Source of the DNA: Candidatus Omnitrophota bacterium
Lineage (GTDB): Bacteria > Omnitrophota > Gorgyraeia > Gygaellales > Profunditerraquicolaceae
Reading direction: 5' to 3'
Length of the DNA stretch: 64,000 bases
Assembly (NCBI GenBank): GCA_035402765.1
Contig: DAONDX010000002.1
Location: 1,173-65,172 of the forward strand
Part shown: positions 4,088 through 63,247 of the stretch, piece by piece
Position numbering within the stretch: position 1 is the first letter of the stretch
Layout: each line of letters opens with the position of its first letter
Notes under the pieces: model-generated
What the model saw: only the letters and a program-made list of their open reading frames with translations
Database searches by the model: none
Told to the model about the DNA's origin: nothing
Position numbers and translations under genes: made by a program

Positions 4088-4876
4088 TCATTCTCTTACC
4101 ATTATCGTTTTAGCCGGGCAGACCTTTACGCATTCCTGGCAGGAAGTACATTTATGATAATCAATTACCGCCAAATTATCTACTACATGTATCGCATCAA
4201 ACTTGCAGGCCTTCTCACACAATTTACAGGCGATACAACCTACCGGACAAATACTTTTGACATCTTTACCCGGATCAGTCGAACTACAGGCCACATAAAC
4301 AGAATTAGTTATTGAAACCAGTGAAAATATTTTTTTCGGGCAGGACAAAACACATTTGTTGCAAGAACGGCACTTAATTTTATCTACTACAGGTAAGTTC
4401 TGTTCGGACATGCTAATCGCCCCGAACGGGCAGGCCTTAACACAAGTGCCAAACCCCAGGCAGGAAAAAACACAGGTTTTTTGCCCCCCTAAAACCAAAT
4501 TCGCAGTAATACAATCATGAACTCCGTCATATAAATATTTATCCTTGACCCTCGAGCCTCCGTTGCAATGCACAGTAGCAATCTTTTTATTTTGTTTGAC
4601 CAGCGCCAAACCTAAAATCTCAGCAATCTTTTCTCTGGATTCATCGCTGCATACCCGGCAATTATCTACCTGTCCTTGACCGTTAACCAAGCTTTCGGCA
4701 AAACCGAAACAACCCGGATTTCCGCAAGCCCCGCAATTTGACCCGGGCAAAAGATGCTGCACCTGGTCTAATTTCAGATTAATCGTAACGGCCAGTTTTT
4801 TTGAAGCAATCGCCAAACCGATGCCGAAGACTAAGCCTAAAATTCCTAAGATCAAAATCGCAATCAAGATTTCCAT
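4088..4876 (-). CDS. rnfB: Rnf electron-transport complex subunit B (polyferredoxin)
   Basis: N-terminal TM helix plus multiple CxxCxxCxxxCP 4Fe-4S motifs; last gene of the rnf cluster. Confidence 0.85.
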   Translation of the reverse strand: MEILIAILILGILGLVFGIGLAIASKKLAVTINLKLDQVQHLLPGSNCGACGNPGCFGFAESLVNGQGQVDNCRVCSDESREKIAEILGLALVKQNKKIATVHCNGGSRVKDKYLYDGVHDCITANLVLGGQKTCVFSCLGFGTCVKACPFGAISMSEQNLPVVDKIKCRSCNKCVLSCPKKIFSLVSITNSVYVACSSTDPGKDVKSICPVGCIACKLCEKACKFDAIHVVDNLAVIDYHKCTSCQECVKVCPAKTIMVRE

Positions 4877-7094: not shown

Positions 7095-7614
7095 TTTTTA
7101 TTAACTCTTTTATCTCTTTTGCCTTCTGCATCACTGAATCCATGACCGCGCGGCTGGAAATGGTTGCCCCGGTGATCGCTTGAACCCCGGATAAAGTTAA
7201 ACTATCCTGTTGGCAAAACTGCTCCGTAAATTTTTTCTCGGTTACCCGCATGCCTAATCCCGGAGTCTCATTCACCGATATAATTTTTATCGCGCTAATT
7301 TTTTCATCCAGGAATATCCCGGCCAGGGTTTCAATTACGCTGGAATACCCCTTACCGCTGGCGCGGAAAACAAAACCAATCAGCTTATCCTGCCCATCAA
7401 TTGCTTTATAATATAACGTTTCATTATTAGCATCCGGTTTAACTGCGATAAATTTAGCCGCTTGCGGCATAACTTCTTTAAGTGCCGACTGCTCTTCGGA
7501 TTGAGCAGCGGCAATAATTCTAGGCCCGGTAAGCTTATTCACTGTCGCCAGAAGCCCGGCGGCAATCACACAAATCATTGCCAGAATTAAACCGTATCTG
7601 ACCATTTCTTTCAC
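7084..7614 (-). CDS. rnfG: Rnf complex subunit G (NqrC-like, covalent FMN); GTG start
   Basis: KGYSSVIETLAG, ETPGLG and the flavinylation motif ITGATISSRAV match RsxG. Confidence 0.85.
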   Translation of the reverse strand: MKEMVRYGLILAMICVIAAGLLATVNKLTGPRIIAAAQSEEQSALKEVMPQAAKFIAVKPDANNETLYYKAIDGQDKLIGFVFRASGKGYSSVIETLAGIFLDEKISAIKIISVNETPGLGMRVTEKKFTEQFCQQDSLTLSGVQAITGATISSRAVMDSVMQKAKEIKELIKNDE

Positions 7615-7687
7615 CGCGCACCTTCTTTCTGATTTAAATTACCAAACCCCGCAGACTTAATCGCCGAATATCCAGAAGACGCCTGGT
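7615..7687 (-). repeat. Intercistronic element copy 2 (73 nt), rnfC stop to rnfG GTG
   Basis: Minus strand: TGA accagGCGTCTTCTgg...AATCAGAAAGAAGGTGCGCGgtg. Confidence 0.65.
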
Positions 7688-15894: not shown

Positions 15895-16128
15895 CTACAT
15901 GGCTTTAAGGGCTTCCTGAATCAACGGTAAGATGCCTTCAGCTTCTTCCTTAAGCAGACGGCCGAGCTTTGCGAAAGCATACTCGCCATTCCTGTCTTTC
16001 ACTTCTCTGACGATTTGAATCTTTTTAACACCCTGGTTATAGGAATAAACACTAACCACGATCTTACCGGAATCATTCTCCCAAAAACGCGTAAATACCT
16101 GTGTGTCTAAACTGCTGTCGTACGGCAT
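15895..16128 (-). CDS. Small (77 aa) protein, possibly a PC4/YdbC-like ssDNA-binding fold. The true start is probably the internal ATG at ~16126-16128 rather than 16293.
   Basis: A strong SD, GAGGAGGT, lies 5 nt upstream of that ATG. The upstream in-frame codons cover a conserved non-coding motif. The segment IVVSVYSYNQGVKKIQIVREV...GEYAFAKLGRL resembles the PC4 C-terminal domain, which is weak evidence. Confidence 0.4.
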   Translation of the reverse strand: MPYDSSLDTQVFTRFWENDSGKIVVSVYSYNQGVKKIQIVREVKDRNGEYAFAKLGRLLKEEAEGILPLIQEALKAM

Positions 16129-16143
16129 TGTGACCTCCTCGTG

Positions 16144-16197
16144 CATGAACACGACACCGGCGCAATTCAAATAAGCGCCGGGTGTAGTATTCCTTAG
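16144..16197 (-). ncRNA. Conserved ~55-nt leader motif, copy 1 (minus-strand sense AGGAATACtaCACCCGGCgCTTATttGAAttGCGCCGGTGTCGTGTTCaTgC). Predicted hairpin immediately 5' of the SD of the PC4-like gene.
   Basis: About 85% identical to 34208..34257. The conservation is out of frame relative to the overlapping annotated ORFs. Confidence 0.5.
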
Positions 16198-16246
16198 TTT
16201 ACAAACATAACATTCGCGTAATATCAAATAATGCGGGTATTTTCCT

Positions 16247-33151: not shown

Positions 33152-33958
33152 TCATCTTCCGATCACTTCATTTAAACTGCCTGTCCGATAACCTTCCAAA
33201 TCTACCGTGATATAGTTATAACCTATTTTTTTAAATCGCTCAACGATCAGGCGCCGTTTACGCAGTAAACGCCAAAGATCGCTCTGGTTTACTTCAATAC
33301 GGCAAAGATTATTATGATGCCGCAAGCGCACCTGCTCAAAACCCAGGCGGTTTAAATATGTTTCAGCCTGGTCAACGCGCTTAAGCAGACTGGCTGTAAT
33401 TTTAACTCCGTAAGGTATCCGCGAAGCCAAACAAGCCAGGCTGGGTTTATTCCAGCTGGAAAGGCCCAGCTTCCTGCTTATTCTGCGAATATCATTTTTA
33501 TCAAAACCTGCCTGGATCAAAGGCGATTTTATTTTAAGTTCACGTTTAGCCATATTTCCCGGCCGGTAGTCCTGCTGGTCTGAAAGGCTGCCAGCCTCCA
33601 AAACAAAATTTAATTTATTTTGTTTAGCCAGGGCGGTTAACTTTAGAAAAAGTTCTTGTTTACAAAAATAACAACGCCTAACAGGATTGGCCGTAAATTT
33701 GCGGTTATTCAGTTCTCCGGTTCTAATAACCTTAAGCCTCACCCCAATTTGCCTAGCCAAAACTTTTGCTTTAGCTAACTCATCTTTAGGATAAGTGGCT
33801 GAAACAGCGGTTACCGCTAAAACCTTATCCTTCGGCAACACCAACGCACAAATCTTAAGCAGAAACGCGCTATCCTGTCCGCCGGAAAATGCTACGAGAA
33901 CTGATTGATACGAGGAAATTATATGCTTAAGGCGACTGAGCTTATTCCGAAAAACCAT
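33152..33958 (-). CDS. PP-loop ATP pyrophosphatase of the LarE / TIGR00268 type (sulfur-transferase-like)
   Basis: VAFSGGQDSAFLL PP-loop; ~268 aa, typical for the family. Confidence 0.6.
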   Translation of the reverse strand: MVFRNKLSRLKHIISSYQSVLVAFSGGQDSAFLLKICALVLPKDKVLAVTAVSATYPKDELAKAKVLARQIGVRLKVIRTGELNNRKFTANPVRRCYFCKQELFLKLTALAKQNKLNFVLEAGSLSDQQDYRPGNMAKRELKIKSPLIQAGFDKNDIRRISRKLGLSSWNKPSLACLASRIPYGVKITASLLKRVDQAETYLNRLGFEQVRLRHHNNLCRIEVNQSDLWRLLRKRRLIVERFKKIGYNYITVDLEGYRTGSLNEVIGR

Positions 33959-34192: not shown

Positions 34193-34207
34193 TTTTATTC
34201 TCCTTGC

Positions 34208-34257
34208 GTACGAACACGACACCGGCGCGCTTCCCATAAGGGCCGGGTGTATTCCTG
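34208..34257 (-). ncRNA. Conserved ~55-nt leader motif, copy 2 (minus sense AGGAATACACCCGGCcCTTATggGAAgcGCGCCGGTGTCGTGTTCgTaC), immediately 5' of the nfu SD
   Basis: About 85% identical to 16144..16197. Confidence 0.5.
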
Positions 34258-34351
34258 TTCTAATTAGACGACCGCGGCGTAATTCTGCAAACGCCAGATG
34301 CCAAGTTACTGATATTCTATTTAATTGTACCACCCTAAAAAAAGCCTGCAA

Positions 34352-52827: not shown

Positions 52828-52988
52828 TTGCGTCTCCTAAGATTATGGTTAGATTAATAAATCCAATATATTATATATGAAAACTAAATAATAGCAAAAG
52901 AAATAGGGAGCCTGAAAAATGAAGCTGGCGCTATCGGTTTTCAAATTTTTTAAACCGAAGGCGCCAGCTTTATTTTTTTAGCTTTTCC

Positions 52989-62050: not shown

Positions 62051-63149
62051 TTATTTGTTAGCGCTGAACTTAAGAAAAGCTTCGATAAAATCATCTAAGC
62101 CGCCGTCTAGAACCTTTTGGCTGTCTCCGGTTTCAAAATCCGTGCGGTGATCCTTCACTAAATTATACGGATGCAAAACGTAAGAGCGGATCTGACTGCC
62201 CCACTCAATCTTTTTTTTGTCTGAATCCTGTTTCCTTAATTCTTCGTCTTTTTTAGCCTGCTCTGCCTCATAAATACGCGCCTTAAGGATTTTTAAAGCT
62301 GTTTGTTTGTTTTGAAATTGCGAACGCTCATTCTGGCATTGCGCAATAATCCCGGTGGGAATATGCGTAATCCTTACCGCTGAATCCGTGGTATTCACGC
62401 TTTGGCCGCCGGCGCCTTTAGAACGATAGACATCTATCCGCAGATCGGTTTCCGGAATAACCAAATCTGCGTCTTCTTCTACCTCCGGGATTACATCCAC
62501 CGAGGCAAAAGAAGTATGCCTGCGCTTATTGGCATCAAAGGGAGAGATGCGTACCAAACGGTGTACTCCCCGTTCTGCTTTTAAATATCCGAAAGCATAA
62601 GGCCCGTCGATAACCAAGGTAACGTTTTTGATCCCGGCCTCTTCTCCGGGCAGGATATCGATGGTTTTTACGCTATAGCCGCGGCTTTCGGCAAAACGGC
62701 TGTACATCCTTAAAAGCATGCCGGCCCAATCGCAAGACTCTGTGCCTCCGGCGCCGGAATTTATGCTTAAAATTGCGCTGTTCTTATCCAGCTGGCCGCC
62801 CAAAAGCACCTGGAATTCCAGTTTATCAATTATTCCGGTCAGATCAGCAGCATTACCCGTTAATTCCGCAACCAACTCCCGGTCATCTTCTTTAACCAGA
62901 GGGGCCAGCTCAGCTAACTCCTGATATTTTTTATAAGCCTGTTCCCACGGTTCGACTGTTATTTTCAGGCTCTTTAATTCTTTAACTATTTTCGTTGAAC
63001 GGTCGCCATTATTCCAAAAACCTTCTTCGGACATCTGCTGATTTAAAGCATCAATCTTTTGTTTTTTATTGGCAACGTCAAAGATAACCTCTTAAGTTAT
63101 CCAGCCTAACCCCGATCTCATTTAATTTGCCCTTAATCTCTTCAATCAT
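62051..63149 (-). CDS. prfB: Peptide chain release factor 2, with programmed +1 frameshift at CTT TGA C (TGA at plus ~63078-63080). The listed 327-aa ORF is the post-shift segment.
   Basis: Upstream frame translates [29 protein letters not shown] lies 3 nt before CTT TGA C, the classic site. The downstream frame carries SPF and GGQ motifs. Confidence 0.85.
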
Positions 63150-63247
63150 CATCAGCTCCTTATCCACGAGGACAACACCAACGCGATACCAATGCGCGTT
63201 GGGTGTCGGATTCCTAAAGACAACACTTGATTTTCTATCTAATGACC

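Follow-up and report, generated by a model that had tools for sequence, protein, structure and literature searches.

A strand-specific two-hairpin element recurs directly before ribosome-binding sites and some tRNA genes in Candidatus Omnitrophota

Why do two unrelated genes of one Omnitrophota genome carry nearly the same stretch of sequence in their leaders, and what might that stretch do? Omnitrophota are uncultured, and to our knowledge the control of gene expression in them is wholly uncharacterised. The question arises from an earlier note on a DNA segment of 64,000 nt (the whole stretch that we analysed, hereafter the window), in which two look-alike leader stretches had been described. 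The resemblance is real: there are two minus-strand copies, each of about 50 nt, that share a core identical at 17 of 17 positions. This core, GAACACGACACCGGCGC, occurs exactly twice in the 64-kb window (plus strand, 16147-16163 and 34212-34228); no third match was found there with up to three mismatches allowed, for a chance expectation of 0.07, and the hairpin pattern CCGGC-N-GCCGGTG is confined to the same two sites. We also confirm that the over-extended open reading frames that run through the copies read the motif in different frames, as ..CAGVVF.. in one and ..APVSCS.. in the other; coding is therefore no explanation of the similarity.

Both copies stop just 5' of a strong Shine-Dalgarno (SD) sequence and then an ATG, as had been claimed for the minus-strand sense. 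The GC hairpin that was said to end 10-15 nt before the SD is present (we name it H), but those 10-15 nt are themselves a second small hairpin, the clamp hairpin h (Table 1). As to the blocks that the two copies share further upstream, AGGAATAC and ATTACGC, the similarity again stands, but they are remnants of preceding, decayed units. The relic ahead of copy 1 begins a few nucleotides past the stop codon of the upstream ORF (16247), and its local alignment to the unit consensus scores 44 (shuffle mean 13.2, maximum 24; 0/500 as high). The probable relic ahead of copy 2 is weaker and marginal, at 25 (shuffle mean 15.3; 5/500 as high). With R1, a covariance model made from members of the family, copy 1 reaches 60.8 bits (E 4e-14) and copy 2 47.7 bits (E 1e-10); the model also located a new and more divergent third copy on the minus strand between pilT and prfB (63157-63207; 30.9 bits, E 3.8e-6). 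Relative to copies 1 and 2, the stem of copy 3 carries a compensatory change, GG/CC to AA/UU. The window as a whole holds three intact copies and two relics, one of them the marginal case. A longer extension of H, GAAUAC/GUGUUC, is preferred over h when the window copies are folded singly by minimum free energy (MFE); we set it aside, given that it is h that is conserved in the family comparison.

Table 1. Units of the two-hairpin element and their relics in the window (positions in window coordinates; sequences in the minus-strand sense).
Feature	Position	Strand	Sequence or remarks	Evidence
Copy 1, hairpin H	16154-16185	-	ACACC(C)GGCGC - UUAUUUGAAUU - GCGCCGGUGU; bulged C in 5' arm	sequence, covariance model, nhmmer, RNA fold
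Copy 1, clamp hairpin h	16140-16153	-	CGUG-UUCAUG-CACG; abuts H, ends directly at SD	sequence, family-wide h rule
Copy 1, SD and start codon	16126-16139	-	SD AGGAGG 16139-16134; ATG 16128-16126 (77-aa gene)	
Decayed unit directly upstream of copy 1	16191-16238	-	ACCC-GC-AUUAUUUGAUAUU-ACGCGAAUGU, then h-like segment and AAGGA	
Copy 2, hairpin H	34219-34250	-	ACACC(C)GGCCC - UUAUGGGAAGC - GCGCCGGUGU	
Copy 2, clamp hairpin h	34205-34218	-	CGUGUUCGUACGCA; weakened, 3 bp	
Copy 2, SD and start codon	34190-34204	-	SD AGGAG 34204-34200; ATG 34192-34190 (nifU)	
Probable decayed unit upstream of copy 2	34253-34300	-	CAUCUGGCG-UUUGCAGAAUU-ACGCCGCGGU, then h-like segment and AGGA	
Copy 3, hairpin H	63175-63206	-	ACACC(C)AACGC - GCAUUGGUAUC - GCGUUGGUGU	covariance model, sequence, fold
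Copy 3, h, SD and start codon	63150-63174	-	h UGUCC-UCGU-GGAUA 63174-63161; SD AGGAG 63160-63156; ATG 63152-63150 (prfB)	

The genes behind the window copies have little in common. Copy 1 precedes a gene for a 77-aa protein and then an SNF-family transporter; the operon behind copy 2 reads nifU, a larE-like PP-loop ATPase gene and nifS. The middle gene of the latter (33152-33958, minus strand) encodes a LarE-type ATP-dependent sulfur transferase (TIGR00268, E 1e-92), and the order nifU-larE-nifS recurs in other Omnitrophota loci (L128 and L249-L252), often near an Rrf2 regulator. The prfB gene behind copy 3, for release factor 2 (63152-62051, minus strand), contains the classical programmed +1 frameshift, CUU UGA C, at 63083-63077; the list of open reading frames shows its second frame only (62051-63034). 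Sigma-70-type promoters are predicted at none of the three window copies. TTGATA and TTGCAG, ahead of copies 1 and 2, might pass for -35 boxes; they are in fact decayed-unit loops, and the promoter scanner finds no promoter there. Nor is the element an intrinsic terminator: at the three window copies there is no terminator-like site and no U-tract on the element (minus) strand, and h is followed by AGGAGG or by AAAUUGC. One further partial and weak match to the model, at 52925-52967 on the plus strand (GCUGGCGC...GCGCCAGC and a T-run), is an ordinary terminator between convergent genes.

A search for further copies, which the earlier note had proposed, revealed many, in relatives as well. The way into the family was through two over-extended homologues, P0121 and P0013, whose common N-terminal 'VCPxGQGG' led to loci L128 and L129 with variant and tandem units. 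From variant copies of the L128/L129 type, together with the earlier copies, we derived a degenerate pattern, and a scan of metagenome contigs with it returned at least 119 loci and at least 121 matches, nearly all of them real. A scan of species genomes with the pattern CCGGCN{8,20}GCCGGTGTCGTGTTC gave, among the matches listed, one real unit (L095, before rpsT in another Omnitrophota MAG); the others, about 119 at the least, are chance matches in high-GC genomes, in which the 3' half encodes the peptide AGVVF. Ten downstream proteins were sampled, and in the 6/10 90%-identity clusters that have named members these are all Ca. Omnitrophota; the homologues of the window's own proteins likewise bear the names Omnitrophota or Omnitrophica. 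Five unseeded loci near nifU homologues (92.7 kb) also contain units, at other genes. The density, in the window and at other loci, is about one site per 20-45 kb. Viral contigs gave 0 matches in a scan for the element. Rfam 15 has no match to window copy 1, or to the simple, nested and array copies of related loci, at E<=10 or at gathering threshold, and none at gathering threshold to window copies 2 and 3; a literature search on covarying or intergenic elements of Omnitrophota found nothing relevant. The element family is thus large, belongs to Candidatus Omnitrophota, and is new with respect to Rfam 15 and the literature searched. The N-termini that led us to it are false: M(R)xCPxGQGG, as in P0121 and P0013 and at L244:4909, L220:122 and L230:4439, is h (GCCC-UUGU-GGGC) plus AAGGAGG in translation.

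The family-wide counts that follow refer to the loci that were listed. A unit consists of H, then h without any spacer, then 0-1 nt, AGGAGG, and a start codon some 6-8 nt further on. H is 30-32 nt long, with about 10 bp, one bulged C and an 11-nt loop close to U(U/A)AUykGAAUU; its general form is (A)CACC(C)GGCGC - loop - GCGCCGGUGU. At H positions that the pattern left free, pairing in the seeded alignment is maintained by different bases: C-G 66, U-A 37 and other 1 at one pair, G-C 88, C-G 8 and U-A 1 at a second, and C-G 76 and U-A 14 at a third. The window copies, L095 and the non-pattern matches make up a set that is for the most part independent of the scan pattern; here both partners vary in 7/10 pairs and pairing holds in 95.7% of cells, a result reached by 0/500 shuffles. 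The covariation that the earlier note had asked about is therefore present in the stem. Six loop positions (C9, U10, A12, U13, G16 and A17) were fixed by the search pattern, which imposes part of their apparent invariance; support for conservation of the H loop comes solely from the unconstrained AAUUG and the pattern-independent copies.

The clamp hairpin h is regular too. Starting with the very next base after H, 110/122 distinct units of the listed loci form a perfect stem of 4 bp or more, against 15.9 (maximum 29) in shuffles. These h stems are 4-5 bp long and come in 45 distinct versions around an NNGU loop, 79/110 of the loops ending in GU. What follows h is either (A)AGGAGG or AAAUUGC, the latter being the 3' half of an enclosing unit. 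The SD is unpaired after h in the family consensus fold; in some units the 5' arm of h can pair alternatively with the SD, so that constitutive exposure of the SD is not certain. Single simple units are only modestly more stable than shuffles (z -0.75 to -2.2).

Units also nest. The inner unit sits within the outer loop, between UAAUCGG and AAUU, and the result is a three-way junction formed from an outer stem (ACACCCCGCGC/GCGCGGGUGU), the inner H and the inner h, followed by a terminal h and the SD. In an RNAalifold consensus of nested units, the outer stem, H and terminal h all reappear, with 10/24 pairs compensatory; the outer stems covary across an insert of about 60 nt, and the MFE fold of a single nested sequence gives the same three-way junction (z -2.8). 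Tandem units carry an SD-like AAGGA along with them, with AAGGAAUAC junctions, and most sites (119/126 at the listed loci) have a single unit. At L186:565-700 and in L228 (about 7500-7640) a unit is embedded in another repeat, gctgtttccttag...accagctttaccc... Two known RNAs that we came across are unrelated to the element: a c-di-AMP (ydaO) riboswitch at L228:7959-8144 and a partial group I intron at L173:2093-2216. The suggestion that the two window stretches are a candidate non-coding, structured leader RNA is borne out by this analysis, as a strand-specific hairpin in 5' leaders with compensatory stem changes.

The position of the units relative to genes is strongly constrained. At the listed loci, an SD-led ORF follows on the same strand within 260 nt for 94/102 units, and within 62 nt for 79 of these; in the opposite direction, an SD-led ORF lies within 260 nt of just 8/102 and within 62 nt of one. 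Start codons lie most often 20-29 nt past the end of H, in a sharp peak that moves to 50-59 nt if the unit is nested (listed loci). On the other side, the upstream gene is co-directional at 80/108 sites, and at about 30 sites its stop codon lies no more than 8 nt from H, with stop triplets frequent at -4 and -6 (listed loci for both). Units often fill the entire spacer from upstream stop codon to next SD, and their 5' flank is RAC or a stop codon. Many are internal to conserved operons and flush with the upstream stop codon, e.g., before rplP, rpsK, rpsM and atpD. Others lie some 5-20 nt downstream of a predicted promoter, and a good promoter has the end of its -10 box about 10-25 nt ahead of the element.

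The downstream genes are diverse. At the listed loci, 86 downstream proteins match 114 Pfam families, none of which occurs more than twice. The downstream genes encode the ribosomal proteins L16, S11 and S13, an HU-like protein, Ndk, DnaK, ClpP/ClpC, AtpD (the ATP synthase beta subunit), PhoU, PurE and NifU; further ribosomal proteins (L6, L9, L20, L31, L7/L12 and S20) were recognised by N-terminal sequence, and pilins and many lipoproteins add to the list. In six of the listed loci it is a tRNA gene that follows, starting 38-68 nt past H, with the mature tRNA beginning within a few nt of the last helix: tRNA-Pro in L135, L165 and L199, and tRNA-Gly in L173, L210 and L213, in the last of which units fill inter-tRNA spacers. 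In L140 two units stand back to back (4216-4266, minus; 4272-4323, plus), their 5' ends adjacent and each pointing outward; this opposite-strand pair argues for a link to transcription rather than to the replication strand. Stand-alone arrays are rare (about 4% of the listed loci). At L205:166-390, three to four simple or nested units lie between two terminator-like hairpins, next to a convergent gene and with no ORF behind them, and may represent a stand-alone non-coding RNA made of units alone. Terminators, not genes, follow the units in L200 (214-244), L193, L216 and L234.

The element, then, is strand-specific, structured, modular and reused generically. We tentatively prefer, at a little under an even chance, the explanation that the units are a generic, portable leader and intercistronic cassette that would act at the RNA level. 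On that reading, the untranslated spacer would be folded into stable helices with the SD alone left single-stranded; this could insulate the ribosome-binding site from upstream sequence, and RNases could be kept off the 5' flank of the downstream RNA as well as off the upstream cistron's 3' flank. Alternatively, the 3' foot of h may be a site of processing that the unit marks. A trans-acting factor probably reads the conserved H loop. Transcription, processing, and effects on stability or translation are what we infer for the units from their sequences. Counting against the cassette are the modest stability of single simple units, the few units with terminators behind them, and a patchy presence at orthologous genes, which would suit a spreading selfish repeat as well. 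There is also a bolder proposal, which we regard as possible but rather unlikely: a clade-wide post-transcriptional 'hairpin tag', in which a dedicated protein would read the H loop and act at the foot of h, freeing or activating the downstream mRNA or tRNA, with arrays of units as decoys. Such a protein would be either a regulator that binds RNA or, after the manner of Cas6/Csy4, an endoribonuclease specific for hairpins.

Several more specific readings can be weighed against the generic cassette. A regulator dedicated to the two noted loci is rejected, since orthologues of both genes in other Omnitrophota often lack the element: the leaders of the 77-aa gene in L004-L007 and of nifU in L249-L253 are without a unit. 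The leading idea of the earlier note, a metabolite- or ion-sensing riboswitch for the two operons, is close to refuted. It would suit a conserved, structured 5' leader with covariation, and a nested form that has a three-way junction, but the genes behind all copies, the comparison of which had been suggested, are functionally unrelated (the 114 Pfam families of 86 proteins at the listed loci, and tRNAs too), and the simple form is just two hairpins, which lack a conserved junction. Neither a terminator nor an alternative that would sequester the SD is conserved, and Rfam 15 is without a match; an SD that is unpaired in the consensus fold means no conserved expression platform, and it is on this point and on the gene content that the riboswitch fails. 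We consider it very improbable that the signal resides in DNA, as a dimeric repressor's operator (the 'conserved operator' of the earlier note) or as an unusual promoter with its transcription start just after h. H is indeed an inverted repeat, a functional RNA (SD or mature tRNA) starts right after the element, and a subset of copies has a -35-like TTGAAT in the H loop. Such a reading fails because a single genome already shows covariation of the stems (copy 1 against copy 3), because h is free in sequence with its pairing kept, and because many units are operon-internal, flush with an upstream stop codon; the arms of H are moreover asymmetric, with a bulged C, no -10-like hexamer lies at a fixed place, and a sigma-70-type promoter is predicted at 0/3 window sites. 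Reuse before more than 100 unrelated Pfam families and some tRNAs likewise argues that the element is neither a ligand-specific riboswitch nor a DNA operator. Resemblances to sigma-54 and ECF promoters, IREs, T-loop or tRNA-like structures, integron attC sites and CRISPR repeats are dropped, as spacing or consensus positions do not fit.

More serious, as a rival or a complement to the cassette, is a selfish origin, to which we assign a low probability: the units would be a dispersed DNA repeat of REP/REPIN or MITE type, whose hairpins are needed in single-stranded DNA for a transposase encoded elsewhere, target preference together with tolerance would account for the pre-gene position, and expression would be affected, if at all, only incidentally. 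Precise nesting inside the loop of another unit speaks for it, as do tandem arrays with SD-like AAGGA copied at AAGGAAUAC junctions, decayed relics, identical H+h sequences before unrelated genes, and patchy presence at orthologous loci (the 77-aa gene and nifU). Against it stand an orientation locked to the downstream gene (94 versus 8) and a fixed register to the start codon, the outward opposite-strand pair of L140, which runs contrary to a replication-strand bias, and h stems that differ between sub-families with their pairing kept. No terminal inverted repeats or target-site duplications were seen, and the AGGA on both sides of the window copies is explained by tandem units. Viral contigs are without matches, and a crude regular expression for HUH/Y1-transposase motifs, a weak test, returned 0 in 1864 ORF segments (855 kb). 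Orthologous sites with and without a unit exist, with flanks too diverged for clean empty sites. It is also conceivable, if again unlikely, that the units are binding sites of a global, Csr/Rsm-like RNA-binding regulator that reads a (G/U)GA in the H loop and the nearby SD, with RNAs of tandem units as decoys. The H loop is conserved while the stem covaries; about 60% of 75 distinct H loops contain GGA, and a second GGA lies in the SD AAGGAGG about 30 nt downstream; and the geneless array of L205 between its terminator-like hairpins, together with the terminator-followed units of L200, L193, L216 and L234, could be such decoys. Against this, about 33% of the 75 loops have UGA instead of GGA, stand-alone arrays occur at some 4% of loci, and units before or between tRNAs are not explained by translational control. 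In a tblastn search of 855 kb, a tiny sample, E. coli CsrA and Hfq had no match, and B. subtilis CsrA had a single weak one (E 0.35, in L229). A protein-binding leader, as the earlier note had proposed, is possible.

Each of several known systems resembles the units in part. REP/BIME and REPIN-RAYT sequences of Enterobacteria and Pseudomonas are likewise short, GC-rich, imperfect palindromes with many intergenic copies and clusters; they are transcribed, number tens to hundreds of copies, and form RNA hairpins that affect mRNA stability. However, REPs have no fixed orientation or register to the next SD, are typically 3' of genes, and occur as inverted pairs with a 5' GTAG and a linked RAYT gene. 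Our units are oriented (94 versus 8), end at the SD and have a large conserved loop, with no RAYT seen; their arrays are direct or nested rather than inverted, and their 5' flank is not GTAG. The mycobacterial interspersed repetitive units (MIRU) share the placement, being intercistronic, in one orientation to transcription and flush with stop and start signals, but these tandem repeats, 46-101 bp in length, contain short ORFs for translational coupling and have no conserved covarying hairpin and no nesting. Omnitrophota units are mostly single per site (119/126); their reading frames differ, and it is pairing rather than coding that defines them. BOX, ERIC/IRU and Correia (CREE) elements are also small modular or palindromic repeats near genes (BOX is modular in the manner of H and h), and are co-transcribed, their RNA structures altering the processing or stability of neighbouring mRNAs. 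They differ in being larger (100-160 bp), in having terminal inverted repeats and, for Correia, a TA target duplication, and in occurring in both orientations, not fixed to an SD.

Among regulatory RNAs, Csr/Rsm targets offer a hairpin loop with a GGA-like triplet upstream and a second in the SD of many unrelated mRNAs, and CsrB/RsmZ decoys are RNAs of repeated hairpins; what sets the units apart is the 11-nt loop, UGA in a third of them, a long conserved stem, an obligatory second hairpin and their occurrence before tRNAs. The ompA leader, the RNase III sites of phage T7 and engineered Csy4 or RiboJ insulators share with the units a stable hairpin immediately 5' of the ribosome-binding site, which would define or protect the 5' end and decouple that site from upstream sequence. 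Those cases are individual or engineered, whereas the units are one module before a few per cent of genes in many genomes of one phylum. What is unusual about the units is how strictly they are coupled to the ribosome-binding site and to the 5' ends of tRNAs.

The gene behind copy 1 deserves mention in its own right. Its 77-aa product (15898-16128, minus strand) has no sequence match in Pfam, NCBIfam or the PDB and is conserved in more than 500 Omnitrophota-type sequences. The AlphaFold model, a confident one (pLDDT 90), has four strands plus a helix; its best match is Borrelia Pur-alpha (3nm7; TM 0.75, rmsd 1.6 A), and it also resembles PC4-like ssDNA binders. These fold matches suggest a single-stranded nucleic-acid binder of the PUR/PC4/Whirly type; the former label 'PC4-like' is thus roughly right at the level of fold (PUR/PC4-like), and only there. 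As a speculation, the protein is a candidate partner of the element.

The reuse of one module ahead of tRNAs and of a few per cent of genes, among them many housekeeping genes of the kind that is usually highly expressed, suggests a lineage-specific post-transcriptional layer in these uncultured bacteria. The candidate forms of such a layer are insulation of ribosome-binding sites, punctuation or stabilisation of mRNA, or a large protein-RNA regulon. There are practical consequences for annotation: gene callers extend ORFs into the element and so create spurious 'CPxGQGG' N-termini, and a covariance model of the unit could help to locate genuine start codons, and genes with high expression, in MAGs. 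As a natural part, the module is also a candidate for the insulation of ribosome-binding sites, and in its nested, tandem and three-way-junction forms one can study how a functional RNA module goes together with repeat-like spread. If true, the hairpin-tag system would be a natural, genome-wide counterpart of engineered RNA-processing insulators.
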